A stretch of DNA of 64,000 bases, taken from sequence record MT446390.1. One strand, given 5' to 3'. Origin of the DNA: Escherichia phage TH12. This document shows positions 17,072 through 45,839 of the stretch, in pieces (the stretch's first letter is position 1; the number at the start of each line of letters is the position of its first letter). The translations under genes and the position numbers were made by a program. The notes beneath the pieces were generated by a model. It was given only the letters and a program-made list of their open reading frames with translations, made no database searches and was not told where the DNA came from.

Positions 17072-17242
17072 ATGCAAGTTAAATTATTGTACCGTTTATT
17101 AAAAAATGGCAAGCATGATTGGTATTTGCTTATTAAAACCGATCCGAATTTTTTCTCTGGACAACCATTTACAGTTCGTCCTACTAAACGTCAGCTTCGC
17201 AAAGCTAAACGTTCTCATCGTAACTTTTATAGAGAATATTGA
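17072..17242 (+). CDS. Small basic protein (56 aa), paralog-like to 45627-45839
   Basis: Internal ATG (MQVKLLY) after GGGAAGAG; C-terminal FTVRPTKRQLRKAKR matches FAVRPTKRQIRQEKR. Confidence 0.45.
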   Translation: MQVKLLYRLLKNGKHDWYLLIKTDPNFFSGQPFTVRPTKRQLRKAKRSHRNFYREY

Positions 17243-17243
17243 T

Positions 17244-17657
17244 ATGAATATTTCTGAAACTCGCGGTAAATGGTTCAAGATTGTTAAAGAAGACGAAGAA
17301 CTACAAGACAAGTTTCCTGAATTAAAGAAAGGAACAATCATCAAGGTAATTGGTACTACTACCGAAGATGGTTATGGCGACCATGGCATTATCGAAGTGA
17401 TGTTGAACACAGGTGAGAAACTTTGCATCTATGACCGTGATACTTCTCTTTGGTGCTTCTGGGAATCCCATTCAATAGATGAACTCGAAGAAATTGACCA
17501 AGTAGTTTGTGATGGTGGACTTGGTGAATTCGAAGGTGAACGTATTTCTTATGCTTTAGCTAAATTAGCTGGTCAAGAAAATAATGACGGTTATGAAGGT
17601 AATCTGATGCAAGCCGCAGCGGAATACATTGAATATTTAGAAAGACGTTTAAGTTAA
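17244..17657 (+). CDS. Hypothetical acidic protein (137 aa)
   Basis: Internal ATG (MNISETRG); track start 17106 lies inside upstream gene. Confidence 0.55.
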   Translation: MNISETRGKWFKIVKEDEELQDKFPELKKGTIIKVIGTTTEDGYGDHGIIEVMLNTGEKLCIYDRDTSLWCFWESHSIDELEEIDQVVCDGGLGEFEGERISYALAKLAGQENNDGYEGNLMQAAAEYIEYLERRLS

Positions 17658-17692
17658 TAAATACCCTTATCTATTTAAGGTAAGGGTTTATT

Positions 17693-18166
17693 ATGTTATT
17701 ATCTGGCAAATTATACAAAGAAGAAAAACAAAAATTTTATGATGCACAGAACGGTAAGTGTCCTATTTGCCACCGTGAATTAGACCCTGATGTTCAAGGT
17801 AACCATCTTGACCACGACCACGAGTTAAACGGGCCAAAAGCCGGTAGAGTTCGTGGATTACTCTGTAATCTGTGCAACGCAGCAGAAGGCCAAATGAAGC
17901 ATAAGTTCAACCGTTCTGGTCTTAAAGGTCAAAACGTTGATTACCTCGAATGGCTTGAAGCTCTTCTTGCTTATTTGAAACAAGATTATTCTGATAATAA
18001 TATCCATCCTAATTTTGTTCCAGACAAAACTAAAGAGTTCTCAAGACTAGGTAAAGAGGAAATGATGGCTGAGATGCTTCAAAGAGGATTTGAATATACT
18101 GAATCTGATACTAAAACACAATTAATAGCTTCATTCAAAAAGCAGCTTAGAAAGAGTTTAAAATGA
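17693..18166 (+). CDS. 49: Endonuclease VII (Holliday-junction resolvase)
   Basis: MLLSGKLYKEEKQKFYDAQNGKCPICHREL...HLDHDHELNGPKAG...LCNLCN matches T4 gp49; 157 aa. Confidence 0.95.
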   Translation: MLLSGKLYKEEKQKFYDAQNGKCPICHRELDPDVQGNHLDHDHELNGPKAGRVRGLLCNLCNAAEGQMKHKFNRSGLKGQNVDYLEWLEALLAYLKQDYSDNNIHPNFVPDKTKEFSRLGKEEMMAEMLQRGFEYTESDTKTQLIASFKKQLRKSLK

Positions 18167-19980
18167 AAATTGAAAAAGAAATTGAAGGATTAATTTATAA
18201 AACTAATAAAGATCTTTTGAACGAGAATGCTAATAAAGATTCTCGTGTTTTTCCAACTCAACGGGACCTTATGGCTGGTATTGTGTCTAAGCACATTGCC
18301 AAAAATATGGTCCCGTCTTTTATTATGAATGCGCATGAAAGCGGAATCATTCATATGCATGATATTGATTATTCTCCTGCTCTTCCGTTTACTAATTGTT
18401 GTTTAGTCGATTTAAAGGGGATGCTTGAGAATGGATTTAAATTAGGCAATGCTCAAATTGAAACGCCTAAATCGATTGGTGTTGCTACTGCAATTATGGC
18501 ACAAATTACTGCACAAGTTGCTTCCCATCAGTATGGCGGAACTACATTTGCGAATGTCGATAAAGTTCTTTCTCCTTATGTTAAACGTACATACGCTAAA
18601 CATGTTGAAGATGCAGAAAAATGGCAAATACCAGACATTCTGAATTATGCTCAATCTAAAACAGAAAAAGACGTATACGATGCATTCCAAGCTTATGAAT
18701 ATGAGGTAAATACTCTTTTTAGTTCAAACGGTCAAACGCCTTTTGTAACAATTACATTTGGTACTGGAACTGATTGGACCGAACGAATGATTCAGAAAGC
18801 AATTCTGAAAAATCGGATTAAAGGTCTCGGTCGTGATGGAATAACTCCTATTTTTCCTAAACTTGTTATGTTTGTTGAAGAAGGTGTTAATCTTTATAAA
18901 GATGATCCGAACTATGATATTAAACAACTTGCGTTAGAATGTGCAAGCAAAAGAATGTATCCTGACATTATTTCGGTTAAGAATAATAAAGCTATTACTG
19001 GTTCTTCAGTTCCAGTTTCTCCAATGGGTTGCCGTAGTTTCTTGAGTGTATGGAAAGATTCGACTGGTAATGAAATTCTTGATGGACGTAATAATCTCGG
19101 TGTTGTAACACTGAATCTTCCTCGCATCGCGTTAGATTCTTATATTGGAACACAGTTCAATGAACAGAAATTTGTTGAGCTATTTAATGAACGAATGGAT
19201 CTGTGCTTTGAAGCCTTGATGTGTAGAATTAGTTCCTTAAAAGGAGTTAAAGCGACTGTTGCTCCTATTCTTTACCAAGAAGGTGCATTCGGGGTTCGTC
19301 TTAAACCTGATGACGACATAATTGAGTTATTTAAAAACGGTAGAAGTTCAGTGTCTTTAGGATACATTGGTATTCACGAATTGAATATTCTTGTCGGACG
19401 TGATATTGGACAAGAAATTTTAACTAAAATGAATGCTCATCTTAAACAGTGGACCGAAAGAACTGGATTTGCTTTTAGCTTATATTCTACTCCTGCTGAA
19501 AACCTTTGTTATCGCTTCTGTAAACTTGATACAGAAAAATATGGAAGTGTAAAAGATGTCACTGATAAAGGCTGGTACACTAACAGTTTCCATGTTTCAG
19601 TAGAAGAAAATATTACTCCGTTTGAAAAGATTTCTCGTGAAGCCCCATATCATTTCATTGCGACAGGCGGTCACATTTCTTATGTTGAACTTCCTGATAT
19701 GAAAAATAACCTAAAAGGTCTTGAGGCTGTATGGGATTATGCTGCACAACATTTAGATTATTTTGGTGTTAATATGCCAGTAGATAAATGTTTTACATGT
19801 GGAAGTACTCATGAAATGACTCCTACTGAAAATGGATTTGTTTGTTCAGTTTGCGGAGAAACTGATCCTAAAAAGATGAACACTATAAGAAGGACCTGCG
19901 GTTATTTGGGAAATCCGAACGAGCGCGGATTTAATCTAGGCAAAAATAAAGAAATCATGCATAGGGTTAAACACCAATGA
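18163..19980 (+). CDS. nrdD: Anaerobic ribonucleoside-triphosphate reductase
   Basis: 605 aa; C-terminal glycyl-radical motif RRTCGYLG and zinc-ribbon CFTCGS...CSVCGE. Confidence 0.95.
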   Translation: MKIEKEIEGLIYKTNKDLLNENANKDSRVFPTQRDLMAGIVSKHIAKNMVPSFIMNAHESGIIHMHDIDYSPALPFTNCCLVDLKGMLENGFKLGNAQIETPKSIGVATAIMAQITAQVASHQYGGTTFANVDKVLSPYVKRTYAKHVEDAEKWQIPDILNYAQSKTEKDVYDAFQAYEYEVNTLFSSNGQTPFVTITFGTGTDWTERMIQKAILKNRIKGLGRDGITPIFPKLVMFVEEGVNLYKDDPNYDIKQLALECASKRMYPDIISVKNNKAITGSSVPVSPMGCRSFLSVWKDSTGNEILDGRNNLGVVTLNLPRIALDSYIGTQFNEQKFVELFNERMDLCFEALMCRISSLKGVKATVAPILYQEGAFGVRLKPDDDIIELFKNGRSSVSLGYIGIHELNILVGRDIGQEILTKMNAHLKQWTERTGFAFSLYSTPAENLCYRFCKLDTEKYGSVKDVTDKGWYTNSFHVSVEENITPFEKISREAPYHFIATGGHISYVELPDMKNNLKGLEAVWDYAAQHLDYFGVNMPVDKCFTCGSTHEMTPTENGFVCSVCGETDPKKMNTIRRTCGYLGNPNERGFNLGKNKEIMHRVKHQ

Positions 19981-20447
19981 ATTATGATAGATTTTATCCT
20001 TGCGATTTTGTGAATGGTCCTGGTTGTAGGGTCGTTCTTTTCGTTACGGGGTGTTTGCATAAATGCGAAGGGTGTTATAATAAATCAACATGGAATGCTA
20101 GAAATGGTATTCCATTCACTGGTGAAACACTAGAACAATTAATTGAATGTTTGAATAATTATTATATAGAAGGATTAACTATAACCGGAGGAGACCCTCT
20201 CTATCCTGATAACCGAGATGTTATTCATTACATTGTTCAAACAGTAAAAAATCTTTATCCCAATAAAAGCATTTGGTTGTGGACAGGATATAAGTTTGAA
20301 GATATTAAACAGCTAGAAATGCTTAAATATGTTGATGTTATTATTGATGGGAAGTATGAGAAAAATCTTCCGACCAAAAAGCTGTGGCGAGGATCAGATA
20401 ATCAGCGACTTTGGTCAAATACCGATGGGGTGTGGAAACATGATTAA
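19977..20447 (+). CDS. nrdG: Anaerobic RNR activating enzyme (radical SAM)
   Basis: ATGA overlap with nrdD; radical-SAM cysteine triad GCLHKCEGCYN; 156 aa. Confidence 0.9.
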   Translation: MNYDRFYPCDFVNGPGCRVVLFVTGCLHKCEGCYNKSTWNARNGIPFTGETLEQLIECLNNYYIEGLTITGGDPLYPDNRDVIHYIVQTVKNLYPNKSIWLWTGYKFEDIKQLEMLKYVDVIIDGKYEKNLPTKKLWRGSDNQRLWSNTDGVWKHD

Positions 20448-20550
20448 ATTGAATTACATTATGGATACTATAAATGATATGATTTTTCATTTTGGTCCAG
20501 AATTTTATTCGCAATATGGTTTGCTTATCAATGCTTGGTTAATTAATTAA
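20440..20550 (+). CDS. Small ORF (36 aa), uncertain
   Basis: ATG overlapping nrdG 3' end; below cutoff; track ORF 20329 runs through nrdG in another frame. Confidence 0.3.
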   Translation: MIKLNYIMDTINDMIFHFGPEFYSQYGLLINAWLIN

Positions 20551-20558
20551 GGGTAAAT

Positions 20559-20774
20559 ATGTATAAATTTCGTAAAGGTTTAGCTGATTTTCTTACAACT
20601 GTAACGTTCTTTTTGTTTATGGCAGTTGGAGCTATTTTTCTTATTCCTTTTACTGGTGTATTTTTCGTGATTAGTTTAATTTCTCCAGAAAAGGGCTTAT
20701 CTTCTAATGAGTTCAATGAGCGTCTGGATAAAATTACTAACAAACTGAATTCTGTTCTTGATAAAAAGGCTTAA
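20559..20774 (+). CDS. Small membrane protein (71 aa)
   Basis: Hydrophobic core FLTTVTFFLFMAVGAIFLIPFTGVFFVISLI. Confidence 0.5.
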   Translation: MYKFRKGLADFLTTVTFFLFMAVGAIFLIPFTGVFFVISLISPEKGLSSNEFNERLDKITNKLNSVLDKKA

Positions 20775-20776
20775 TT

Positions 20777-21094
20777 ATGATTAGTTTTGAGCGGTATGTA
20801 GTAGAGAGTTGGAATGGGTTTGATATGTTCGGTAATGACTATTATTTTTACGAATGTAATCTAAATCCTAGTTTTTGGGCTGGACGTGAACGAGATCTCG
20901 AAGAAATTAATGCTCGCGCCGAATTGTTAGGTGAACTGCCTACAGTTTATTTTACATTTGATGAATCTGGATTTGTTATCCAGGTTTATTTTCCTGAAGA
21001 AAACTCTGGTGAGGATTCTGTTAATCCTCCTTATTGGGCTTATCAAGGAATTATTTCTCGTGGAACAAAACTCGAACTTAAAGAACAAGATTGA
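20777..21094 (+). CDS. Hypothetical acidic protein (105 aa)
   Basis: ATG right after upstream stop; stop TGA 21092-21094. Confidence 0.55.
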   Translation: MISFERYVVESWNGFDMFGNDYYFYECNLNPSFWAGRERDLEEINARAELLGELPTVYFTFDESGFVIQVYFPEENSGEDSVNPPYWAYQGIISRGTKLELKEQD

Positions 21095-21383
21095 AATCTA
21101 TGGCATCCCTGAAGAAGTTGGACGTTGTCCAGGATGTTATACTGTTACAAAACTTTTAAAGGAGCTCAATGCTCCTTATACATTTTATAAAGTCCTCACT
21201 AATAATGGTAAGATTGAATATGACCGTCCTTTAATCGTATCTCTTGCTAAACGTGCAGGATTCACTTCACTTAATATTCGTTATCCTGTCATATTTTTAA
21301 ATGGTAAGAAACAAAAGAATATTGCAGAGTTTAAAAAGTCCTTGATTTCATTAGGATACGACTCTGATATCATAGAAGATTGA
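21090..21383 (+). CDS. Glutaredoxin/thioredoxin-like protein (NrdH-like by position), apparent non-AUG start
   Basis: IEIYGIPEEVGRCPGCYT redox-active CxxC; no in-frame ATG/GTG/TTG between upstream stop and domain; proposed ATT 21090 overlapping TGA (ATTGA). Confidence 0.5.
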   Translation: MEIYGIPEEVGRCPGCYTVTKLLKELNAPYTFYKVLTNNGKIEYDRPLIVSLAKRAGFTSLNIRYPVIFLNGKKQKNIAEFKKSLISLGYDSDIIED

Positions 21384-21385
21384 CC

Positions 21386-21412
21386 AGGTGCCGCCTGGTC
21401 TTCTTTATCCCA
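21386..21412 (+). terminator. Putative intrinsic terminator
   Basis: gaccagg-tgccg-cctggtc hairpin followed by ttcttt. Confidence 0.5.
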
Positions 21413-21548
21413 TTTCTAATATAATCTATTGGAACCCTCACTTCACTATCTCCTTGTGCCCCTCTCAAATCAAAAATATTTTCATAAAACAGTTTACATC
21501 CTCGATAGATATGTTAAGATTAAACCATCTGCTATAGAGGAAAACAAA

Positions 21549-21731
21549 ATGACAATTGAAGATAAAGAAATTAAGGTTGACCAGTACTATTCTGTCAACG
21601 GTAATGCAGTACAGATAACCAGAGTTTCAAGCCTGGATGTTTGGTACCGTTCAATCAAATATCCAGAAATTGGTGAAATGCTTTGTGACCGTAGTATCTT
21701 CTGTTCAATTGCGAAGGAAATTAAGCCATGA
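21549..21731 (+). CDS. Hypothetical protein (60 aa)
   Basis: Internal ATG (MTIEDKEIK) after AGAGGA; early-promoter-like gtttac upstream. Confidence 0.5.
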   Translation: MTIEDKEIKVDQYYSVNGNAVQITRVSSLDVWYRSIKYPEIGEMLCDRSIFCSIAKEIKP

Positions 21732-21976
21732 TTAGTTTAGATTCAAAGAAAGTTGTTCTAACCCTTAAAGTTAATGATGAGCGACCGGTATTCGTTACCA
21801 TTTCCGATTTGCATGTTGAAATTGCTAATGGCGTTCGTACTTATCAAACGTCTAAAACTCAATGGGACTATATCCCAATGTTGACGCTTACTCAGCGTTT
21901 AGAATCAATCGGACTTAAAGACCTTTCAGTAAGTGAAGTGAATTTTATCAAACGCATTGTATCAATCAACCTCTGA
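21728..21976 (+). CDS. Hypothetical protein (82 aa)
   Basis: ATGA overlap with upstream stop. Confidence 0.55.
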   Translation: MISLDSKKVVLTLKVNDERPVFVTISDLHVEIANGVRTYQTSKTQWDYIPMLTLTQRLESIGLKDLSVSEVNFIKRIVSINL

Positions 21977-21983
21977 GGTACTT

Positions 21984-22277
21984 ATGGGTAAAACATATCG
22001 TCGTAAAGATTTGAAAGTTCGCGATTACGACTATTTTGGTAAGCGTAAAGCTCCTGATGGTGTTAGCCACAAAGACATGGTTGAAAACATCTTCCGCTCA
22101 GATAAATGGAAACGTATGAAAGGCGTTGATTCTGAAGTCAAGAATGAAATGAATCGACAACTCCGCAAAGAAGTTCGTAAGTTGAAAAAAGATGTTTACA
22201 GTAAAGAAGATTATGATTATAATACTTCTCATACTGAAGCCAAACGTAAAGCTAACGAATGTTATCGTTACAGTTGA
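21984..22277 (+). CDS. Basic protein (97 aa)
   Basis: Internal ATG (MGKTYRRK) after GAGGT; Lys/Arg-rich. Confidence 0.55.
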   Translation: MGKTYRRKDLKVRDYDYFGKRKAPDGVSHKDMVENIFRSDKWKRMKGVDSEVKNEMNRQLRKEVRKLKKDVYSKEDYDYNTSHTEAKRKANECYRYS

Positions 22278-22284
22278 GGAAATT

Positions 22285-22419
22285 ATGAATATCAAACGAA
22301 TGCTTTTTAAGCAGGGATTATATACTTTAAATGTTAATCCAAAGGGTGATACAACTAAATGGTCTGTAAATGACTGGATTAAGTTCATCGATGAAAATGG
22401 GGCATGGAACACAAAATGA
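22285..22419 (+). CDS. Small ORF (44 aa), uncertain
   Basis: ATG after GAGGA; track start 22192 overlaps upstream gene. Confidence 0.35.
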   Translation: MNIKRMLFKQGLYTLNVNPKGDTTKWSVNDWIKFIDENGAWNTK

Positions 22420-22616
22420 ATCCTGAAAATATTGTGTCATGGCAACTTCGTGAAGAACGTGCAGAATTCTTTGCCAATATGAAACTCAACGGTGTTGAGG
22501 ATGAAGACTTTTTACGCTGGTTCTGGATTTACAAATACAAAGAATGCCAACATGCTGTGCTATTGACTTGCGCAATTATGTACGAAGGCTGGAAAGGCGC
22601 TAAAAAGTTCGGTTAA
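22416..22616 (+). CDS. Hypothetical protein (66 aa)
   Basis: ATGA overlap with upstream stop. Confidence 0.5.
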   Translation: MNPENIVSWQLREERAEFFANMKLNGVEDEDFLRWFWIYKYKECQHAVLLTCAIMYEGWKGAKKFG

Positions 22617-22671
22617 TAGTTTATGATGGTAGGAAGATAACACTTCTTCCTACCAATTTGAGGAGAATATC

Positions 22672-22911
22672 ATGGAACAAGAATTAGACATTATTACATC
22701 GAAAAAACGTCTTGAAGTTGTAGTGAATGGCTCAACTATTAAGTTTGTATATGACACTTTAACTGATGCTATTACCGTTAGTTGTGGTGGAAAGGCTTTT
22801 AGTCTAGATTCTACTGAAAACAAATACCCGTTCTATAAAGGTATCTTTGATATGGGTGTTGATATCAGTGTTCGTCAAGCAAACTATTTACATTATCTTA
22901 TCACTAAATAA
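22672..22911 (+). CDS. Hypothetical protein (79 aa)
   Basis: ATG after GAGGAG; upstream inverted repeat ggtaggaag...cttcctacc. Confidence 0.55.
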   Translation: MEQELDIITSKKRLEVVVNGSTIKFVYDTLTDAITVSCGGKAFSLDSTENKYPFYKGIFDMGVDISVRQANYLHYLITK

Positions 22912-22977
22912 CGCACAAACTCTTGAGAGCAGAGTATAATGTTCTCATTGGATAATAAAATAACCGAGGAAAATAAT

Positions 22978-23310
22978 ATGTCTACTAAAATCAAAAACGT
23001 GGTGAACTCTTTCGCTTTCGATAAAGTTGTTAGTCTTCTAGAAAAAGGCGGTATTGTTACTCCTCAAGTTCTTGACGCATGGGAATTCCGTCTTTATGAA
23101 ATCATGCAAAAACACGACCAGAAAATTGGACGTAATTCTATTCGCGAAATTCTAGTACAATATATTCTTTCTGAATTTGACGTTGCTGCATTTGGTGTTG
23201 AATCTAAAGCTTATCAGAAACATGAAATCTCTGAAAAGACTATCCGTCGTATGAAAAATCAACGTAAGAAAAAATTCGTTGACCTGAAAATTGTTAAGGC
23301 GGTAAAATGA
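22978..23310 (+). CDS. Hypothetical protein (110 aa)
   Basis: Internal ATG (MSTKIKN) after CGAGGA. Confidence 0.55.
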   Translation: MSTKIKNVVNSFAFDKVVSLLEKGGIVTPQVLDAWEFRLYEIMQKHDQKIGRNSIREILVQYILSEFDVAAFGVESKAYQKHEISEKTIRRMKNQRKKKFVDLKIVKAVK

Positions 23311-23534
23311 GCGTATTAACAGAAACTTTGATTAATGACCTGCGTCTAGCTGGTTACGAAGTTGGTACAAATAGTCTAGGTCTTCCTCAGATTGAAGGTC
23401 CTGGATTTATTCTAGAATATGAATTTAAACAATGGTGGCTATATGCTACGGTTGACGATGCGTTGAATATTGATTTCGTTGACCAATTTGATTCGCTGGA
23501 TGCTGCTCTTGAAGCAGCAAAGGAACTAGAATGA
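23307..23534 (+). CDS. Hypothetical acidic protein (75 aa)
   Basis: ATGA overlap. Confidence 0.55.
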   Translation: MSVLTETLINDLRLAGYEVGTNSLGLPQIEGPGFILEYEFKQWWLYATVDDALNIDFVDQFDSLDAALEAAKELE

Positions 23535-23800
23535 AACTATCTCGAATCGCTATAACTGAAGAAAAGCTGGGCGAATTTTACGTCGACAACTTTATGAAAG
23601 TTACGTATTTTCCATTTGTTAAAGGTGTCGGTTTTTGGGAAACTCATGTATCTCAATTAAATGAAGGCGACTATAACGAAACACATGAGAACTTTTTAGA
23701 TTTTCTTTATAACGCTGGTCTTACTGAGCTTTATATCGATATCCATGAGTTCAAACGTTTAATGGAAAAAGTATTCCAGGCGTATTGTTTGCTCCGATAG
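23531..23800 (+). CDS. Hypothetical protein (89 aa)
   Basis: ATGA overlap. Confidence 0.55.
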   Translation: MKLSRIAITEEKLGEFYVDNFMKVTYFPFVKGVGFWETHVSQLNEGDYNETHENFLDFLYNAGLTELYIDIHEFKRLMEKVFQAYCLLR

Positions 23801-23872
23801 TATCTCGTGCTTTAAGATAGGTCTCTAAATATTATGATATAATAGACCTATGAATTGAGCCAAGAGGTACTT

Positions 23873-24430
23873 ATGACTGAACAAAAACCTAAAAATAACT
23901 ATGTGAATAATAAAGAGCTTCTCGCCGCTATAATCGAGTGGAAAAAGGAGCTCTTAAATAATAAAGACCCAAACAAAATTATTCGTCAGAATGATACCAT
24001 CGGTTTAGCAATTATGCTTATCGCCGAAGGCCTGTCCAAACGTTTCAACTTTTCAGGATATACCCAGTCTTGGAAGCAGGAGATGATTGCAGATGGGATT
24101 GAAGCCTCTATTAAGGGACTTCATAATTTCGACGAAACTAAGTACAATAACCCACATGCATACATAACTCGAGCTTGTTTTAATGCTTTTGTCCAACGTA
24201 TCAAAAAAGAACGTAAGGAAGTTGCAAAGAAATATAGTTACTTCGTTCATAATGTCTACGACAGTCATGACGATGATATGGTAGCGTTGGTAGATGAAAC
24301 GTTTATTCAAGACATCTACGATAAAATGACGCATTATGAAGAATCCGCTTATAAAGCTCCTGGGGCTGAAAAGAAGGAAGTTGTTAGCGATTCGCCTAGT
24401 TTGGATTTTTTATATGAGGATGACAATTGA
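23873..24430 (+). CDS. 55: Late-transcription sigma factor gp55
   Basis: [27 protein letters not shown]...[38 protein letters not shown] matches T4 gp55; 185 aa; track start 23855 is non-ATG. Confidence 0.95.
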
Positions 24431-24629
24431 TATCTCTAACTACTTAGAAGAACCTTTTGACGAAGCAATCCCTTATTTGGTAAAACTGTTGGGTCGAGAA
24501 TTTAAAATTAATTTTGACATCGACCCTTTGAACCCACATGACGTGTCATTTTCGATAAATGGGACTCCAGTTGAGTACGAGTTCTGTATTGAAGAGGACG
24601 GACGTTTTTATTTTAATTTAATGAGATAA
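24414..24629 (+). CDS. Hypothetical protein (71 aa)
   Basis: Internal ATG overlapping 55 3' end; start uncertain (24414 or 24420). Confidence 0.45.
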
Positions 24630-24630
24630 T

Positions 24631-24954
24631 ATGACTACCGAGATTATTGAAAATAAAGAAGCAGAAGATGCAGTAGCTAAAATGCTACAAGAAATCCAAA
24701 AGAAAAATGAAGCTGAAGCACGTAAAAAATCCGAAAAGATTCTTAAAAAGAATCGTTTTGAACTAAACCGTCTTTATGCTCATGCTCAAGAAGCAGCAAT
24801 TCAAAACAACTTCGAAGCTTACGAATATGCTATTAAGAAATCTCGGGATATTCTACGACAACCATATAATGAAAAGTTAATTAAAATCCAATGGGTTACT
24901 ACTCGTCAGGCTATTGAGGACATCATTAATGGCACTACTTCAAACAAAGTTTAA
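24631..24954 (+). CDS. Hypothetical protein (107 aa)
   Basis: ATG right after upstream stop. Confidence 0.55.
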   Translation: MTTEIIENKEAEDAVAKMLQEIQKKNEAEARKKSEKILKKNRFELNRLYAHAQEAAIQNNFEAYEYAIKKSRDILRQPYNEKLIKIQWVTTRQAIEDIINGTTSNKV

Positions 24955-25224
24955 ACGTCTGAATTTGAACGCAGGGTTCACCCTTAAATTGGGAGGTCCT
25001 CTTTGTGTTAAAATTTCTGAAAAGGAATATCACGACGGTTCTATTACAGAAATTTGTCCGCCTATTGTAAAGGCAGACCCAAAACAACTCGTGTGGGTTG
25101 ATTCATTTCAAGTTAAGAAATGGTGGAAACGATGATAACGTGGACAGGTGGCTAATGAAAGACGAACACCCGGATTTTTAAGCTTATGAATGACAAATAC
25201 GAAAAAGTTTAAGGGGTCATATGA

Positions 25225-25398: not shown

Positions 25399-25412
25399 TG
25401 CTTCCTTTTTTT
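25387..25412 (+). terminator. Intrinsic terminator
   Basis: aaggaagc-ctagt-gcttcctt followed by ttttt. Confidence 0.6.
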
Positions 25413-25459
25413 GCTTTATATTCTGGATGATAAAATGAACCAACTAATGAGGAAAACAT

Positions 25460-34952: not shown

Positions 34953-34992
34953 TATAATGCCATGGACGGTAAACTAATTAAATGAGAGAAAT

Positions 34993-35768: not shown

Positions 35769-35809
35769 AATAGTGTACAATACACCTACTTACCAATGAG
35801 GACCACAAC

Positions 35810-37495: not shown

Positions 37496-37881
37496 TGCAC
37501 CGTGTAGAAAACATGCTTAATCTTTGTTTTGATGTCGATGATTGTATAACAGAGTGGAATAACAATCGTGATTACGTGAACTTCAAACCAGACGTCGAAA
37601 TGGTGTCTGCCATTAATGCCCTGTATGATGCAGGGCATACCATAACGCTTTACACTGCTCGTGGTATGAAGTCAGTAGGTCCTGGTCGTATAGCAATTGA
37701 CATTCTCCCAAGTCTGATTCAGAACTTGGCAAACATTGGCTTGAAGTACCATAATTTGCTAACACATAAACCAGTATATGATTGGATTATCGACGACAAA
37801 GCTATGCGTCCTGACGAATTCAAAGCTCTTATGAATAAAGGCGAATTCGAAACATTTAAATCGTATAAACCGAATCTATAA
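37495..37881 (+). CDS. HAD-superfamily phosphatase-like protein
   Basis: Motif I FDVDDCIT near N-terminus; TAATG overlap with upstream stop; 128 aa. Confidence 0.65.
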   Translation: MHRVENMLNLCFDVDDCITEWNNNRDYVNFKPDVEMVSAINALYDAGHTITLYTARGMKSVGPGRIAIDILPSLIQNLANIGLKYHNLLTHKPVYDWIIDDKAMRPDEFKALMNKGEFETFKSYKPNL

Positions 37882-37939
37882 TAATTTAAGTAAGACCTGC
37901 AAAAAAACCATCGCATCAATTAACGCGAGATGCAAAAAA

Positions 37940-39100
37940 ATGAATACTTTTAAAATCGGAACGAATTTTGATTTAGCTCTTCTTGATAAAATCGTAGAGC
38001 TCAATAAAACCTATCCTAATAGCTTGATAAACGAAGTATATGGCTCTACAAGAGAAATGGCTTTTGTAGCAGCCAGACCTGATTTTAGGCTTCCTGACGT
38101 TGACAAAAAGATGTTAGAAGACTACGTTAAACGTTGTAACGAATTAGGTATTTGCTTTAACTATACACTCAACACGATAAATCCTGGTTCAAAAAGAGAA
38201 CTAGTTGAGTGGAAGAAGAAAGCTATTCAGGATTATGTTCAGTATCTTTGGTCAATAGGCGTATGGCGTATTACTATCGCTAACCCTGTTGTTATGGAAA
38301 TTGTTCGTGAAGTCAATAAAGATATTGAGATTGAAGTTTCAACAATTCTACATGTCGATGCGGTAACTCAAATCAAATACTTACATGACCAATATAACAT
38401 CAAAAAGGTCTGTTGCGGAATTCATAAGAACCGTTCAGTTTCTTTCCTGAAGCGTGCAGCAGAGTTTTGCAATAAGAACAATATAATATTTGAAGTTCTT
38501 GTAAATGAGTTCTGTTCTAATGCTGGTAAAGGGTATACAACACATTGTAGTTATCGTGACTCTTGCTATATTTTCCATAGTACTGATGTTACAGCTGATG
38601 ATGCTAAATCCTTAAATGGATATCCAATGCAACACTGCATTAAAGCTCGTGATACAGACCCATTTAACTGGTTGAGAACTCGTTTTGTTCGTCCTCAAGA
38701 TTTGAAACTTTATAATGATATTGGTATCACTCAATTCAAAGTTTCAGGACGTACAGGTAGCACAGACTACATTTTGAAAGTTCTTGAAGCATACGCTTCT
38801 GAAAAGTTTGAAGGTAATTTGTTAGAACTGTGGAAGCCTTTAGAGACTATTTTCACTCTTGAAAATGAGACTGAGTTTTCACATACAGTAAATATTGAAA
38901 CCTCTTTGTTAGATGGCTTTTTAGAAAAAAGGTGGTTCAGACATCCAGATTTTGATTGTGCTAATGAAATCTGTGGGTCAACGTGTACATATTGTGAAAG
39001 GTATTATAAACGTCAATTATCTAAAAACGGGTTAGCAGAAAACTCCATATCTATTATTGATATAACTAACTCTGATGACGCTTTGAGGTACCCGGAATGA
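37940..39100 (+). CDS. Cys-rich enzyme, tentatively peptidase-U32-like (Fe-S?)
   Basis: 386 aa; Cys clusters VCCG, EFCSNAGKGYTTHCSYRDSCY, DCANEICGSTCTYC; family call is weak by-eye resemblance only. Confidence 0.6.
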   Translation: MNTFKIGTNFDLALLDKIVELNKTYPNSLINEVYGSTREMAFVAARPDFRLPDVDKKMLEDYVKRCNELGICFNYTLNTINPGSKRELVEWKKKAIQDYVQYLWSIGVWRITIANPVVMEIVREVNKDIEIEVSTILHVDAVTQIKYLHDQYNIKKVCCGIHKNRSVSFLKRAAEFCNKNNIIFEVLVNEFCSNAGKGYTTHCSYRDSCYIFHSTDVTADDAKSLNGYPMQHCIKARDTDPFNWLRTRFVRPQDLKLYNDIGITQFKVSGRTGSTDYILKVLEAYASEKFEGNLLELWKPLETIFTLENETEFSHTVNIETSLLDGFLEKRWFRHPDFDCANEICGSTCTYCERYYKRQLSKNGLAENSISIIDITNSDDALRYPE

Positions 39101-39336
39101 TTTCTAGAAAAAGTTTTAATTATAAACTTAACGAAGAGATTTTGACTATGAAACTGAACACTAACGAACAAATTCTTAAAAAGGCCCTTATGGGCCTGTT
39201 TGAAACCAAAGCGGCTAAAGTGATTAAAGAACCTGTTCAATTGGAATACTACACTGATGCATTCCTTCATAGTGTTCTTGGAAGTATAGATTCTGAAGCT
39301 TTACGTTATATCAACATTGTCAAGAAATTCAAATAA
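39097..39336 (+). CDS. Hypothetical protein (79 aa)
   Basis: ATGA overlap; GAGGT upstream. Confidence 0.5.
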   Translation: MISRKSFNYKLNEEILTMKLNTNEQILKKALMGLFETKAAKVIKEPVQLEYYTDAFLHSVLGSIDSEALRYINIVKKFK

Positions 39337-39378
39337 GCTTTATGAATTGAGTATATAATAAATTGTATTGAGGTAAAT

Positions 39379-40095
39379 ATGGGAAAACATAACACAATGA
39401 AATATATCAAAGCCGCAGATTTTCAAACCGCATTTAAAGCAGTCAATCGTGAAATTTTAGAAAACCCCGAATTCGTAACTGATTCTCGTATTGGACGTTG
39501 TAATGAAATTGGGTCTATGACAGTAGTTGTTGACACTCCATCATCATTCAAAATGACCGACCCACGTATTAACCGCATCTCTTATGAATATGCCGAAGAC
39601 TTCTGGAAGTTTATGATTTCTGGTGGTACCAACGCAGAAGAAGCGTTTAAGGCATATCCTAATGTCGCTAAATTTATTTCTAAACCAAAATCAGATGTTT
39701 TGCCGGCGAACTTCAACACTTTCTATGGTCCTCGCATTGCGGCCCAATTACCAACTCTTCTAAAAGAACTTAAAGAAAAACCTAACTCTCGAAGAGTTGT
39801 GTTCCAAATTCTAGAAAGTTCTGATCAGGCTTTGCTTGATTCGGACGAAACACTTGAATATCCATGTACTGACTCAGTAACTTATTATATTCGTGATGGT
39901 AAGCTTTATACCCACTGTCATATGCGTTCTCAGAACTGTGCTGTTGTTATGCAGTTGGATTTTTATCTCCAAGGAAAATTACTTCATTATATCGCTAACG
40001 AATGTGGTGTAGAAGTTGGTGATTATACTCATACCATGGTAAGTGCCCATGTGTTTGAACGTGATTTTGATTATGTTAAAGGATTCCTTGACTAA
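39379..40095 (+). CDS. 42: dCMP hydroxymethylase homolog (thymidylate-synthase superfamily), divergent
   Basis: KPNSRRVVFQIL vs T4 NPDSRRGIMIY; PCTDSVTYYIRDGK...HMRSQN vs T4 MCTNTVQYLIRDKK...NMRSND; SAHVFERDF vs SLHVYSRHF; 238 aa. Confidence 0.75.
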   Translation: MGKHNTMKYIKAADFQTAFKAVNREILENPEFVTDSRIGRCNEIGSMTVVVDTPSSFKMTDPRINRISYEYAEDFWKFMISGGTNAEEAFKAYPNVAKFISKPKSDVLPANFNTFYGPRIAAQLPTLLKELKEKPNSRRVVFQILESSDQALLDSDETLEYPCTDSVTYYIRDGKLYTHCHMRSQNCAVVMQLDFYLQGKLLHYIANECGVEVGDYTHTMVSAHVFERDFDYVKGFLD

Positions 40096-40994
40096 TGGCT
40101 ATTTTCCGCGTACCAATCTTGAGTATGCGGTCTTATGAAACTGGACAGTATGCTATCCTTAAGGATGGCAACTTCCAACTTCATTTGCACCGTGCTAATC
40201 CGGGTGATGTGATTACATATCCACGTAATGCATCTGATATTAAAGAATGCGAACGTCTTTTCCCAGAATTTAAGTTTGTTCCATTATGGTATAAAGATAA
40301 CGCGTATAACACTCGTAAATATTTCTGGACTGAAAATGAATTTGTGGTTGATTCATTAATTGATTATTATGATTGTGATTTTCTAATCACAGATATCACT
40401 GGTTATGGCGGCGCTTTTGATGTGGAATTCAATTTCAATATCACTGCAGACCCTAATAAACCACGTTTTTATATTGATGAATTCTTAAAAACCGACATGT
40501 TGTCTGTTAATCGTTCACTTCAAACTACTGTGTTGAATGAACGTCAAAAAGGAGTGCTGGTTAACGCAGGTGCAGATGGTAATAAGATTATCGTAACGCA
40601 GAAAGTTATACGTCCTTCCATCATGCAGCGTCTTGTAGGTGATTTGGCTCCTATTCATCTAGATGGTATTTTTCATCCATTTCGAATTAGTGACCCATGT
40701 TATCGTTTTGAACAAGTGGTTGAATGTGCAATTCAATTAGGTCAACCGCTTTATATAACCGATCCAAATAATAGCTTCGACAGAAATAAGTATCCTGAAG
40801 AAGCGCTGATTCGAATTTTTAAACCAACTAAAACTGAGTACTATCAAATTCTTAAAGGACGTCCGAAAATTCAATATTTCGAAAATCCTGAAGAAGTATT
40901 CCATCCAGGTCTTGGTGAGTTCATCTACTTTAATGCTTTAATTTCTTCGCCGTATAATATACCTAAATACGAAGATGTCGTAATCGAGGAATAA
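40095..40994 (+). CDS. Hypothetical protein (299 aa) at the T4 beta-gt position
   Basis: TAATG overlap with 42 homolog; no family recognised. Confidence 0.6.
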   Translation: MAIFRVPILSMRSYETGQYAILKDGNFQLHLHRANPGDVITYPRNASDIKECERLFPEFKFVPLWYKDNAYNTRKYFWTENEFVVDSLIDYYDCDFLITDITGYGGAFDVEFNFNITADPNKPRFYIDEFLKTDMLSVNRSLQTTVLNERQKGVLVNAGADGNKIIVTQKVIRPSIMQRLVGDLAPIHLDGIFHPFRISDPCYRFEQVVECAIQLGQPLYITDPNNSFDRNKYPEEALIRIFKPTKTEYYQILKGRPKIQYFENPEEVFHPGLGEFIYFNALISSPYNIPKYEDVVIEE

Positions 40995-40995
40995 A

Positions 40996-41544
40996 ATGGC
41001 TAAAATTATTTTAGTAGACGGCCCAGATAATGCTGGTAAAACAACTTTCATTAATGACATAATGGAAATTAGTGAAAGATATGTAAAGATTGATTTCCCT
41101 AAACGAACAGTTGATGGACGTTTCGATGTTAAGTCTCGAAATGAAGTTGGTTGTTTCGAAACGATGTTGAATTATTTAGACCCTACTAAGATTTATCTGT
41201 TAGACCGTGGATATATTAGTAACTGGGTTTATGGACGTATTCGACAAGATGCGGACTCGGTTCTTGACGTTTATGAACAGGACTATGTTCGTCTTTGCCA
41301 AAACCATGATGTGTTCACAATTATTTTAACACGTAACGAAATGACTGAAAGTTTTGAAGACGACCTTATTACTTTGTCTTCATTCGGTTTTAATACAGTC
41401 GTTTCACATTTTGAAGAGTTTGCAATTCATAACAAAATCCAAACATATCAATTACTTAATCATGATGGTGCTAACAAAGTTATAGGATTTAATGCAAGCG
41501 AACGTAATTGTTTGATTACAGAAATCATCAAATGGGCTCGTTAA
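40996..41544 (+). CDS. P-loop kinase, thymidylate/dNMP-kinase-like
   Basis: Walker A ILVDGPDNAGKTT; LLDRGYISNWVYGR resembles Tmk DR(Y/H) region; 182 aa. Confidence 0.6.
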   Translation: MAKIILVDGPDNAGKTTFINDIMEISERYVKIDFPKRTVDGRFDVKSRNEVGCFETMLNYLDPTKIYLLDRGYISNWVYGRIRQDADSVLDVYEQDYVRLCQNHDVFTIILTRNEMTESFEDDLITLSSFGFNTVVSHFEEFAIHNKIQTYQLLNHDGANKVIGFNASERNCLITEIIKWAR

Positions 41545-41562
41545 GAGCCATTTAAAGTTTTA

Positions 41563-41589
41563 AATGCTGTATAACCCTTAGTATATAAT
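41563..41589 (+). promoter_or_regulatory. Candidate MotA-dependent middle promoter for uvsX
   Basis: aaTGCTgtA MotA-box-like 41563-41571, 12-bp gap, tataat 41584-41589. Confidence 0.45.
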
Positions 41590-41642
41590 CGTCTTATCTT
41601 TTAAACATGAGTAAAATATAATGATGCCTATGGAAAAATACA

Positions 41643-42815
41643 ATGTCTGATTTAAAATCTCGTCTGATTAAAGCTTCTACTTCTAAAATGACTGCGGACT
41701 TGACTAAGTCTAAGCTGTTTAATAATCGTGATGAAGTCCCTACTCGTATTCCGATGTTGAATATCGCACTAGGTGGTGCTCTGAATGCAGGATTGCAATC
41801 AGGCTTGACTATTTTTGCTGCACCTTCTAAACACTTTAAAACGCTGTTTGGACTAACTATGGTTGCAGCGTATATGAAGAAATATAAAGATGCAATCTGT
41901 TTGTTTTATGACTCAGAATTTGGTGCTTCAGAATCTTATTTTCGTTCAATGGGTGTTGATTTAGACCGTGTAGTTCATACTCCGATTCAATCTGTCGAAC
42001 AACTTAAAGTTGATATGACTAATCAGCTTGACGCGATTGAACGCGGTGATAAAGTTATTATCTTTATCGATTCAATCGGTAATACTGCATCTAAGAAAGA
42101 AACCGAAGATGCATTGAATGAGAAAGTCGTAGGTGATATGTCTCGTGCTAAGGCACTTAAATCTCTGTTCCGTATTGTGACTCCTTATCTGACTATTAAA
42201 GATATTCCATGTGTTGCAATCAACCATACAGCAATGGAAATCGGCGGATTGTATCCTAAAGAGATTATGGGCGGTGGTACAGGTATTCTTTATTCTGCCA
42301 ACACGGTATTTTTTATCTCTAAACGTCAGGTTAAAGAAGGTACAGAATTGACCGGTTATGACTTCACGTTGAAAGCGGAAAAATCTCGTACAGTTAAAGA
42401 GAAATCTACTTTCCCGATCACGGTTAATTTTGATGGCGGTATTGACCCATTCAGTGGCTTGTTAGAAATGGCAACTGAAATTGGTTTTGTAGTTAAGCCT
42501 AAAGCCGGGTGGTATGCTCGTGAATTCCTTGACGAAGAAACAGGCGAAATGATTCGTGAAGAGAAATCATGGCGTGCTAAAGCTACTGATTGTGTAGAAT
42601 TCTGGGGACCTTTGTTTAAACATAAGCCTTTCCGAGATGCAATTGAAACTAAATATAAACTAGGTGCTATCTCTTCTATTAAAGAAGTTGATGACGCTGT
42701 TAACGACCTTATTAATTGCAAAGCAACAACTAAAGTTCCGGTTAAAGCTTCTGATGCTCCGTCTGCAGCAGATATAGAAAACGACCTTGACGAAATGGAA
42801 GATTTCGATGAATAA
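41643..42815 (+). CDS. uvsX: RecA-like recombinase UvsX
   Basis: MSDLKSRLIKASTSKMTADLT...matches T4 UvsX N-terminus; C-terminal acidic tail; 390 aa. Confidence 0.95.
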   Translation: MSDLKSRLIKASTSKMTADLTKSKLFNNRDEVPTRIPMLNIALGGALNAGLQSGLTIFAAPSKHFKTLFGLTMVAAYMKKYKDAICLFYDSEFGASESYFRSMGVDLDRVVHTPIQSVEQLKVDMTNQLDAIERGDKVIIFIDSIGNTASKKETEDALNEKVVGDMSRAKALKSLFRIVTPYLTIKDIPCVAINHTAMEIGGLYPKEIMGGGTGILYSANTVFFISKRQVKEGTELTGYDFTLKAEKSRTVKEKSTFPITVNFDGGIDPFSGLLEMATEIGFVVKPKAGWYAREFLDEETGEMIREEKSWRAKATDCVEFWGPLFKHKPFRDAIETKYKLGAISSIKEVDDAVNDLINCKATTKVPVKASDAPSAADIENDLDEMEDFDE

Positions 42816-43149
42816 TCTCGATGATTTAAATCTAGAAATCGTTGATGAATCCCCTTCTTCGGAAGGGGAAGACATTCGCAAAGAACGAGTGTTTAATGAA
42901 TCTCTTAAAATTATCCGTTCAGCAATGGAAAATGTCATTCAAGAGATTCTGATTACACTTGAAGACGGTTCTCATCATATAGTCTATATTACAAAACTAG
43001 ACTGGGTTGATGGTAAAATCGTAATGGACTTTGCAGTTCTTGACCAGGACAGAAAAGCAGAACTTGCACCACATGTTGAAAAATGTGTTACAATGCAGGT
43101 ACAACAAGCTTTTAATGAACGAACCAAGAAAAAATTTAAATTCTTTTAA
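42808..43149 (+). CDS. Hypothetical protein, gp40-like by synteny (113 aa)
   Basis: Internal ATG overlapping uvsX stop; sits between uvsX and 41 as T4 gene 40. Confidence 0.5.
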   Translation: MNNLDDLNLEIVDESPSSEGEDIRKERVFNESLKIIRSAMENVIQEILITLEDGSHHIVYITKLDWVDGKIVMDFAVLDQDRKAELAPHVEKCVTMQVQQAFNERTKKKFKFF

Positions 43150-43158
43150 GGAGTTATC

Positions 43159-44601
43159 GTGGTAGAAATTATTTTGTCTCATCTCGTATATGACCAGGCT
43201 TATTTTTCTAAGGTCTGGCCTTATATGGATTCTGATTACTTTGAGCGTGGACCGGCAAAAAATGTCTTTAAAATTATAAAGAACCACGTTAACGAATATA
43301 ACGCAATGCCATCCATTAATGCATTAAAGGTGGCTTTAGATAACAGTTCTTTAACTGAAGCCGAATATAAAGGAACTTCAGACTTAATTGAAAAATTGGC
43401 TGATACTCCTGAAGACCACGAATGGTTGGTTAAAGAAACTGAGAAATATGTCCAGCAAAAAGCGATGTATAATGCTACATCCAAAATCATTGAGATTCAG
43501 TCTAATGCTGAACTACCTCCAGAACAACGTAACAAGAAAATGCCTGATGTAGGAGCTATTCCTGATATTATGCGTCAAGCACTTTCAATTTCGTTCGATA
43601 GTTATGTTGGACATGACTGGATGGAAGACTACGAAGCACGCTGGCTTTCTTATCTAAATAAAGCACGTAAGGTCCCGTTCAAATTAAACATTTTGAATAA
43701 AATAACCAAAGGTGGTGCAGAAACAGGTACACTAAACGTTTTAATGGCCGGTGTTAACGTCGGTAAATCTTTAGGCCTTTGTTCACTTGCTGCAGATTAT
43801 CTTCAAACAGGTCATAATGTTCTTTATATTTCCATGGAAATGGCTGAAGAAGTTTGTGCTAAGCGTATAGATGCAAACATGCTTGACGTATCACTCGATG
43901 ATATCGATGATGGTAACGTATCTTATGCTGAATATAAAGCCAAGATGGAAAAATGGCGTTCAAAAACAACATTAGGACGTTTAGTAGTTAAACAGTATCC
44001 TACTGGTGGAGCTAATGCTAATACATTCCGTGCGTTGCTTAATGAGTTAAAACTTAAGAAGAACTTTGTGCCATCTGTAATCATGGTTGATTACTTAGGT
44101 ATTTGTGGGTCTTGTCGTATCAGAGTTTACACTGAAAATAGCTACACATTAGTTAAAGCTATCGCAGAAGAACTTCGTGCATTAGCAGTAGAATCTGAAA
44201 CAGTTCTATGGACTGCAGCTCAAGTAGGACGTGCAGCATGGGATGCTTCAGACATGAACATGAGTGATATCGCAGAATCAGCAGGTTTACCAGCAACGGC
44301 AGATTTCATGTTGGCCGTAATTGAAACCGAAGAACTTGCACAAGCTGAACAACAACTTATCAAACAAATCAAATCACGATACGGTGATAAGAATAAGTGG
44401 AACAAGTTCTTGATGGGTGTACGTAAAGGCAATCAGAAATGGGTTGAGATTGAGCAAGAAGGCATGAACACACCTAACACAGTAAATGAAAACGCAGGTG
44501 CTCAGATGCGTCAGGCAGAGGTGAATCGTACGGAACGCGTAGGTAAAGCCAAAGCAACACGTGCTGACCTAGATAGCTTAGCCAATGAGTTAAAATTTTA
44601 A
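43159..44601 (+). CDS. 41: Replicative DNA helicase gp41 (DnaB-like)
   Basis: GTG start after TAAGGAG; MVEIILSHLVYDQAYFSKVWPYMDS and Walker A GVNVGKS; 480 aa. Confidence 0.95.
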   Translation: MVEIILSHLVYDQAYFSKVWPYMDSDYFERGPAKNVFKIIKNHVNEYNAMPSINALKVALDNSSLTEAEYKGTSDLIEKLADTPEDHEWLVKETEKYVQQKAMYNATSKIIEIQSNAELPPEQRNKKMPDVGAIPDIMRQALSISFDSYVGHDWMEDYEARWLSYLNKARKVPFKLNILNKITKGGAETGTLNVLMAGVNVGKSLGLCSLAADYLQTGHNVLYISMEMAEEVCAKRIDANMLDVSLDDIDDGNVSYAEYKAKMEKWRSKTTLGRLVVKQYPTGGANANTFRALLNELKLKKNFVPSVIMVDYLGICGSCRIRVYTENSYTLVKAIAEELRALAVESETVLWTAAQVGRAAWDASDMNMSDIAESAGLPATADFMLAVIETEELAQAEQQLIKQIKSRYGDKNKWNKFLMGVRKGNQKWVEIEQEGMNTPNTVNENAGAQMRQAEVNRTERVGKAKATRADLDSLANELKF

Positions 44602-44605
44602 TAAA

Positions 44606-44625
44606 AAGGAGACTTCGGTCTCCTT
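44606..44625 (+). terminator. UUCG hairpin (terminator/processing candidate)
   Basis: aaggagac-ttcg-gtctcctt; short T-tract. Confidence 0.5.
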
Positions 44626-44689
44626 TCGGGGTTTACATCTTCCTCTAGGCATGATATGATGAACTTACACCAACCAAGAGGAAAACATT

Positions 44690-45064
44690 ATGAATATGTC
44701 TCAAGCAATTTTTACTGCAATCACAGAAAACACAACTGTTGAAGTAGTTTCTCCACTGGCAACCTACGTTATTCTTGCCCCTAAAACTATTGTATCTCGT
44801 ATGGAAAACATGGGCAAACGTATCGTACAAATTGTCGGAGCCGGAAATCAAAAACTTGATTATCTGCGAACCATCAAAGCTTATGAACATTTCCAACTCG
44901 AAAAAGGTTCTCCTATCCGGGTAGAACTCGTAAATGGTGATATCGTTCGAGCAATGTTCCATCATTTCTATGCATTGAATGACCCATCTAAAGCGGTTCG
45001 TTTAATTGCATACGACGCAAACCAAAACGAAATCAACGCAGATATATCTAAATTACGTTTTTAA
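44690..45064 (+). CDS. Hypothetical protein (124 aa)
   Basis: ATG after AGAGGA; early-promoter-like gtttac upstream. Confidence 0.6.
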   Translation: MNMSQAIFTAITENTTVEVVSPLATYVILAPKTIVSRMENMGKRIVQIVGAGNQKLDYLRTIKAYEHFQLEKGSPIRVELVNGDIVRAMFHHFYALNDPSKAVRLIAYDANQNEINADISKLRF

Positions 45065-45115
45065 GTTTACTTCTCCGGTAGTTGTGTTATTATAGACCTA
45101 TCAACTACTGGAGAA
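45065..45115 (+). promoter_or_regulatory. T4-type early promoter with 14-bp inverted repeat sequestering the SD
   Basis: gtttac 45065-45070, tattat 45088-45093; arms ttctccggtagttg / caactactggagaa. Confidence 0.6.
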
Positions 45116-45119
45116 CAAA

Positions 45120-45437
45120 ATGAAAACCATCGATTGTAAAGCAGAATTTAAGATTTTTTATCACGGTTCAAGTAGTTCAGCTAACATCGAAAACATGCTT
45201 TGTCCTCCTGAAGAAACAGGAGTTCTGTCTGAAACTGGACGTAAGAAAAACTTGGATCGTGTATTCTTTACTGAAGATATCGGTTTAGCAAAGATTTATG
45301 CAGGACGAGCAGCACGCTCTTATGGAGGTGAACCACGTCTCTATCGAGTAATTTCTCCGGTAGACGTAGTTCAAATGAATAATACTAAAGGTGCTACAGT
45401 TTATCACGCTGAATGGGCCTTCTGTGAGGAAATATGA
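45120..45437 (+). CDS. Hypothetical protein (105 aa)
   Basis: ATG after TGGAG. Confidence 0.6.
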   Translation: MKTIDCKAEFKIFYHGSSSSANIENMLCPPEETGVLSETGRKKNLDRVFFTEDIGLAKIYAGRAARSYGGEPRLYRVISPVDVVQMNNTKGATVYHAEWAFCEEI

Positions 45438-45625
45438 GCAAATTAACTAAAGTTACTTTTATCGGTTGGTTTAAAAGCGGCGAGATGTTCACTAAAGATA
45501 TCATGTTATCAGGTGATCGCGAAGAAATCGAGTGGGTTGCGGTACAACTTGCTGAAGTGAACAAAGCATTAGTTAAAGCATTTGTTAATGACGAGAAAGT
45601 TTTTGAAGCTGATTTCAGAGGATAA
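45434..45625 (+). CDS. dmd: Dmd (discriminator of mRNA degradation; RnlA/LsoA antitoxin)
   Basis: VTFIGWFKSGEMFTKDIML...AEVNKALVKAFVNDEKVFEADFRG matches recalled T4 Dmd; 63 aa. Confidence 0.8.
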   Translation: MSKLTKVTFIGWFKSGEMFTKDIMLSGDREEIEWVAVQLAEVNKALVKAFVNDEKVFEADFRG

Positions 45626-45626
45626 T

Positions 45627-45839
45627 ATGTATTCAACTGTGTTTAAACCATCGACATACGAATTTGCATCAACTACACAATGGAAAGCTCTTATTCTGGA
45701 AGGATGGGAACTAATGATGGACTGCGAAGCATCTGAAAAGTTTCCACACGGCAAAGTGGACTTCGTTAAATTTGCTGTACGTCCGACTAAACGACAAATT
45801 CGTCAAGAAAAACGCAAATTTCGCAAAAGTTTAAAATAG
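45627..45839 (+). CDS. Small basic protein (70 aa), paralog-like to 17072-17242
   Basis: ATG after GAGGA; C-terminal FAVRPTKRQIRQEKRKFRK. Confidence 0.5.
   Translation: MYSTVFKPSTYEFASTTQWKALILEGWELMMDCEASEKFPHGKVDFVKFAVRPTKRQIRQEKRKFRKSLK

Follow-up and report, generated by a model that had tools for sequence, protein, structure and literature searches.

Why should a T-even phage carry, 28.5 kb apart, two small genes whose products share nearly the same basic C-terminal motif? This question is raised by a stretch of 64,000 nucleotides (nt) from Escherichia phage TH12 (MT446390.1; hereafter the window), in which a preliminary description had pointed to two such open reading frames (ORFs) and their VRPTKRQ(I/L)R motif. 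Both are indeed present on the + strand, ORF A at 17072-17242 (56 amino acids, aa: MQVKLLYRLLKNGKHDWYLLIKTDPNFFSGQPFTVRPTKRQLRKAKRSHRNFYREY) and ORF B at 45627-45839 (70 aa: MYSTVFKPSTYEFASTTQWKALILEGWELMMDCEASEKFPHGKVDFVKFAVRPTKRQIRQEKRKFRKSLK), the former containing ...PFTVRPTKRQLRKAKRSHRNFYREY and the latter ...KFAVRPTKRQIRQEKRKFRKSLK. One half of the answer is already known: ORF B encodes gp61.4, now called ToxN inhibitory factor A (TifA), with 100% identity to RB69 gp61.4 and a start 1 nt past the dmd stop. ORF A, annotated as 'hypothetical protein', is a new and uncharacterised member of the same, already described family, set apart by its short architecture, a finding that overturns nothing. 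As to what ORF A does, we lean slightly towards a minimal RNA-binding early counter-defence protein, which would trap a host RNA-targeting effector that is probably not one of the ToxN variants neutralised by TifA.

TifA is a phage counter-defence factor against the type III toxin-antitoxin system ToxIN, a role that the preliminary description had overlooked; T4 escapes ToxIN via raised tifA dosage, and the RB69 protein is the more potent inhibitor (PMC9391042). It binds both ToxN and RNA (PMC10853763) and, by its capped basic helix acting jointly with a beta-sheet/loop surface, keeps the ToxN endoribonuclease inactive in a complex on abundant RNA, e.g. 16S rRNA, whereby ToxIN abortive infection is overcome (PMC9391042, PMC10853763). 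In vitro, RB69 TifA binds RNA, single-stranded DNA (ssDNA) and double-stranded DNA (dsDNA) with little sequence specificity, and the published AlphaFold model places a three-stranded sheet against a basic C-terminal helix with a Pro-Thr cap (PMC10853763). Substitutions in the cap (P53A/T54A) or in the basic cluster (K55A/R56A/R59A) of RB69 TifA abolish RNA co-purification as well as ToxN neutralisation, and the equivalent T4 variants lose co-immunoprecipitation with ToxN (PMC10853763). Because V-R-P-T-K-R-Q-I-R corresponds to residues 51-59 of ORF B (45777-45803, + strand), i.e. to the P53-T54 cap followed by K55, R56 and R59 in a helix that AlphaFold2 (AF2) places at 55-69, the motif of the preliminary description is this experimentally defined RNA-binding element. 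Hence, the suggestion that the basic tails could bind nucleic acid holds for ORF B, which is identical to RB69 TifA and its published RNA binding, while for ORF A we infer such binding from the conserved residues and fold. These segments are K/R-rich as described, but the one in TifA is a predicted alpha-helix packed on the beta-sheet rather than a disordered tail. As a detail, Table S2 of the paper, in its PDF text, gives S16 for RB69 TifA, where the GenBank RB69 sequence agrees with ORF B; we take this as a matter of text extraction or strain.

Does the likeness between ORF A and TifA go further than the motif? The two ORFs are short, K/R residues abound in each, and a BLASTP alignment between them spans just 19 residues (63% identity, E = 8e-7), which might raise the suspicion of a chance or compositional resemblance or, worse, of ORF A being no real gene. 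Against this, Pfam family PF23945 (DUF7279), whose gathering score is 24.5 bits, matches both over ~50 residues, ORF A with 54.5 bits (E = 1e-14) and ORF B with 72.1 bits (E = 3.5e-20); T4 TifA scores 72.7 bits and other lineages of the family also lie above the gathering score. In addition, profile-profile comparison of short and long forms by hhalign (probability 97.6%, E = 4e-12) aligns residues 14-51 of ORF A to 24-67 of ORF B over 38 columns. Here, the motif columns of ORF A (V35-R43; 17174-17200, + strand) align one-to-one with TifA residues 51-59, so that the cap and basic cluster P37, T38, K39, R40 and R43 find their counterparts in P53, T54, K55, R56 and R59. By these alignments ORF A is a true paralog of TifA whose similarity extends past the motif, and the PF23945 matches together with the hhalign result bear out the paralogy that the preliminary description had proposed.

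That ORF A is a gene in its own right is seen from its orthologs. It matches phrog_3272 (E = 6e-27), is annotated as a coding sequence in most related genomes and is found by tblastn at >=80% identity in ~145 phage records (Mosigvirus). All 12 Mosigvirus orthologs that we compared are intact at 56 aa and share an invariant FTVRPTKRQLRK. Between the most divergent pairs, the proportion of synonymous differences (pS, 0.42-0.47) by far exceeds that of non-synonymous ones (pN, 0.06-0.10; pN/pS 0.14-0.24, or ~0.2), and variable sites fall 7/8/20 on the three codon positions, a clear third-position excess. ORF A is thus under purifying selection. Together, the Pfam match, the pattern of selection among orthologs and hhalign effectively refute chance resemblance or a spurious reading frame, to which we give next to no credence.

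How old is the pair? Across the 19 aligned motif codons 38/57 nucleotides match, and the same codon is used at 5/12 identical residues. Since so few nucleotides and synonymous codons match, this points to an ancient duplication, preserved as protein sequence, and not to a recent DNA copy. Recent gene conversion between the two loci is ruled out by the same count of matching motif nucleotides and the differing synonymous codons. Within the window the family is confined to these two genes: the pattern [KR]P[TS]..Q[ILVM][KR] is restricted to ORF A and ORF B in a six-frame scan of all 64 kb, and a family hidden Markov model (HMM) matches no third member among 951 stop-to-stop segments, the next best having E = 0.13.

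Conservation of the motif in homologs is likewise confirmed, in that P and the second R do not vary, and T and K hardly do, among 12-24 family members; in the short forms R36-K39, R43, K46 and R47 are all invariant. Family alignments show the beta-sheet part to diverge among lineages and the helix to be conserved, in agreement with published work, where the RNA-binding helix is conserved and the partner surface variable (PMC10853763). A cluster of 26 RB69-type TifA sequences from public read assemblies (P0004) carries Leu at the Pro53 cap (FVVRLTKRQ), which bears on one of the two residues changed in the published P53A/T54A loss-of-function variant. As for the reach of these comparisons, single-sequence, word-indexed homolog searches yielded 2 clusters each and an alignment query reached 23 proteins, while scans of IMG/VR gave 5 and 3 loci; a search of representative proteins with ORF A returned one uninformative 891-aa match. 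The literature that we searched makes no mention of TifA paralogs, DUF7279, RB69ORF087c or RB69ORF089c.

If ORF A is a TifA paralog, what has it kept and what has it lost? AF2 models predict a common strand-strand-strand-helix core for ORF A (pLDDT 87; strands 2-9, 15-24 and 27-33, helix 39-55) and ORF B (pLDDT 81; strands 2-6, 27-33 and 43-49, helix 55-69). ORF A is without the ~15-residue insert that follows strand 1 in TifA (residues 7-26, a low-confidence prediction), and in place of the beta2-beta3 loop 34-42 it has a 2-residue turn (P25-N26), which appears as 6 gap columns in the alignments. This loop, present in ORF B and including residue 41, has been proposed to tune inhibition to particular ToxN homologs (PMC10853763). 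The preliminary description had also considered mimicry of a host protein, a notion that finds no footing here: the ORFs have no sequence relatives in the PDB, the best Foldseek match against the PDB is not significant (E = 0.63), no NCBIfam model matched among bacterial and archaeal families, and every homolog and structural neighbour belongs to a phage. In BFVD, both models match only small proteins of T4-like phages, with A0A0K1LNJ9 of phage Merlin common to both. Host mimicry is therefore, to our minds, most improbable.

Taken at face value, ORF A would be the TifA fold core alone, a three-strand beta meander with a capped basic helix through which it most likely binds RNA in the manner of TifA. 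Acting early in infection as a counter-defence protein, it would trap a host RNA-targeting effector. Given the absence of the proposed specificity loop, this target is probably other than the ToxN variants neutralised by TifA. One could also envisage ORF A as a second inhibitor of TifA's own target ToxN, i.e. as a back-up or dosage copy and the sole anti-ToxIN factor in Mosigviruses that lack tifA. It does share family, RNA-binding residues and fold core with TifA, and the escape of T4 by raised tifA dosage implies that extra copies can pay (PMC9391042). Moreover, ORF A persists where tifA has been deleted: tifA is kept in about 65-68/144 Mosigvirus records and is missing in ~79/144 through a clean ~205-nt indel between dmd and imm.1 (window versus L018 589-662), whereas essentially all Mosigvirus records keep ORF A. 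Speaking against a second ToxN inhibitor, both the residue-41 loop and the 7-26 insert are lacking, overall identity to TifA is ~28% and low outside the helix, and divergent members with the motif failed to neutralise ToxN: six TifA homologs neutralised none of the ToxN/TenpN toxins in the published panel (PMC10853763), which implies that the family has members with other specificities. We therefore regard ORF A as a second ToxN inhibitor as unlikely, albeit worth keeping in sight. Nor is ORF A a redundant spare, since it is kept where tifA or pin has been lost - phages SHSML-52-1, PECP20 and ESh27 (L012, L015, L016) are without pin, yet carry ORF A directly 5' of gene 49 - and since the complete genome of LF82-1 has no other family member.

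Early action of ORF A is suggested by a candidate T4-type early promoter, GTTTACA-N-TGTTATGAT, at 16993-17022 on the + strand. It falls within the last part of the 49.1 homolog, 50 nt 5' of where ORF A starts, and at 10 orthologous loci the -35 and -10 elements are retained while adjacent bases vary. The pattern GTTTAC[AT]-N13-15-TGNTANNAT (TGNTANNAT) occurs 12 times on the + strand (starts at 686, 1793, 3896, 11653, 16993, 21492, 44631, 45065, 45842, 50466, 51935 and 57962) and 0 times on the - strand, where 0.03 would be expected per strand. Among these, the match at 45065-45093 (+ strand) is a candidate early promoter of the ORF040c-dmd-tifA operon, and in T4, dmd-tifA is transcribed from an early promoter (PMC9391042); a further match, at 45842, lies 3' of tifA. 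A generic sigma-70 scan around ORF A showed no enrichment (13 found versus 14.3 expected from shuffles), so that only the stricter early pattern is informative here. From the predicted promoter pattern, then, ORF A is presumably expressed early in infection.

The distribution of the family bears on a further alternative, in which ORF A is a general small RNA- or ss/dsDNA-binding protein of phage expression or RNA metabolism - e.g. an mRNA stabiliser, translational regulator or chaperone - and has no host defence target. Strong conservation across lineages is limited to the nucleic-acid-binding helix, RB69 TifA shows little sequence preference in its binding of RNA, ssDNA and dsDNA in vitro (PMC10853763), and a gene that is near-universal in its genus would more typically serve a core function than be a host-specific accessory. 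On the other hand, the sole characterised family member is a counter-defence factor, and the family as a whole is gained, lost and relocated, as accessory anti-defence genes typically are. In T-even genomes, members of PF23945 are found at four positions or more: directly after dmd (tifA), between 49.1 and pin (the pre-pin short form, ORF A), between pin and gene 49 (the post-pin short form, e.g. RB69ORF087c and PP01_083) and, in Dhakavirus-like phages, between 61.2 and gene 61 (a 73-aa form; L007 1399-1620, L009 1396-1617). At this fourth position the window has no ORF (47587/47589 junction). While the window holds tifA and ORF A and lacks the post-pin form by a clean 193-nt indel versus RB69, the RB69 reference has tifA and the post-pin form together with a frameshifted ORF A (A7 versus A6 run). 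ORF A and the post-pin form are both present in SSE1; PP01 combines tifA and the post-pin form and is devoid of the pre-pin one; LF82-1 lacks tifA (~205-nt gap) and the post-pin form and retains ORF A; T4 has tifA, no pre-pin form and a deleted post-pin gene whose remnant is fused to pin. As read from these junctions, the TifA family is gained and lost through clean indels. Absence from T4 and the frameshift in RB69 also imply that ORF A is not essential, which again fits poorly with a general binder, and we consider this explanation, too, rather unlikely.

Coming back to ORF A as an RNA-binding trap for a host effector, several points weigh against it. Toxin binding of any kind could require the loop that ORF A is missing, which might leave ORF A with RNA binding alone; its promoter is a pattern match within a coding region; both AF2 structures are predicted from alignments of little depth (22-24 sequences); and its frameshift in the RB69 reference, if correctly sequenced, would mean that this lab strain can do without it. 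In RB69, an extra A sits in an A-run (L004 ~4014-4020, - strand; window 17102-17107), and a 38-aa remainder is annotated as RB69ORF089c with a TTG start. The extra A may be genuine or may stem from an error in sequencing.

The post-pin gene has left a trace in T4. Compared to PP01, a clean 137-nt deletion (L019 1898-2383, - strand, versus L003 755-1377) took away the pin stop codon along with 43 codons from the start of the post-pin gene, whose last 15 codons were thereby joined in frame to pin. On this alignment, T4 PinA ends in 15 residues (MIQQYKRLHQMFYNT) that are left over from a TifA-like helix. In another sequence of our set (L020), a tailed pin occurs together with an intact post-pin ORF.

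How does ORF A compare to its relatives? With TifA of T4 and RB69 (gp61.4) it has in common the Pfam family, a PT cap with a K/R-R...R basic helix, the predicted sheet-helix core, small size, high isoelectric point (10.8 for ORF A, in which K/R make up 8 of the 20 C-terminal residues) and a probable early promoter. It differs by its length (56 aa versus 70-85 aa) without the strand-1 insert, by the 2-residue turn instead of the residue-41 loop, by a distinctive H-R-x-F-Y tail and by standing beside pin rather than directly 3' of dmd in the early operon, as ORF B does. Its closest relatives are the uncharacterised post-pin forms RB69ORF087c and PP01_083 (36-44% identity), which share the short architecture, an N-G-x-x-x-W turn, RPTK, a K-R-x-H-R-x-F-Y tail and a place flanking pin, though on its other side, and which have a loop 3 residues longer and a different beta-sheet sequence. 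The 73-aa TifA homolog of the vB_EcoM_005 type, from Dhakavirus-like phages, belongs to the same family, has the same motif and carries a basic helix (RPTKRQIRKLKKAHRQ) resembling that of ORF A; unlike ORF A, it is a long form with the loop retained and is encoded between 61.2 and gene 61. This homolog neutralised no ToxN or TenpN in the published panel (PMC10853763). Dmd (T4 gp61.5), finally, resembles TifA in its small size, its early expression by the phage and its neutralisation of a host RNase toxin; its gene lies in one operon with tifA, but Dmd is unrelated in sequence and binds its toxin directly without RNA (general knowledge and the discussion in PMC10853763).

More tentatively, and with doubts outweighing confidence, we can picture ORF A and the other pin-flanking forms as a distinct subfamily of minimal RNA-binding anti-defence proteins directed at a host RNA-targeting immune effector other than those ToxN variants that TifA handles. 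In that case the short form would be ancestral and near-universal in Mosigvirus, and tifA a dispensable add-on. Nuclease trapping on bulk RNA would then be a modular, retargetable strategy, built from a capped basic helix of ~20 residues on an exchangeable beta-sheet. TifA is one of few phage inhibitors of toxin-antitoxin defence with a worked-out mechanism, and that mechanism has been studied in T4, which has only tifA, and in RB69, whose reference ORF A is frameshifted. The 56-aa stripped-down form is kept more widely in Mosigvirus than tifA. To our minds, ORF A is a candidate for a counter-defence specificity of a new kind and, at the same time, a naturally reduced TifA with which the RNA-binding part may be separated from the toxin-recognising part. 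For annotation, it is worth bearing in mind that PF23945 'DUF7279' is the TifA family.

The window itself belongs to a T-even phage of the RB69 type, genus Mosigvirus (99% identity to phage Mizar, 98% to RB69) in an orientation opposite to the standard T4 map. The surroundings of ORF A are rich in host-takeover genes, pin among them, in keeping with a role in counter-defence. On its 5' side, the 49.1 homolog (16915-17082, + strand) runs 11 nt into ORF A, and this overlap suggests translational coupling. On its 3' side, pin (17244-17657, + strand), encoding PinA, an inhibitor of host Lon protease, starts 1 nt past the ORF A stop and is followed by a terminator-like hairpin (17663-17687, + strand). 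It is between the pin stop and this hairpin that relatives carry RB69ORF087c or PP01_083 as a third TifA-like gene, of which there is none in the window. The neighbour of tifA is dmd (45434-45625, + strand), the antitoxin against RnlA/LsoA, and the two form one operon. A PhiTE-type pseudo-ToxI, looked for as a tandem array of ~36-nt toxI-like repeats, is not found in window 14000-48500, where the single tandem repeat (12 nt, 2.2 copies) lies inside dmd. Further upstream of ORF A, a 111-aa ORF (16608-16943, + strand) gives a Pfam match to the T7 Gp5.9 RecBCD inhibitor below threshold (E = 0.0085; 16.4 bits versus a 24.5 cut-off), and its C-terminus, EELLW.IE.DLPSGLESWIDYEELNKLR, matches PP01_087 (L003 129-299), annotated as 'antitoxin from a toxin-antitoxin system'.

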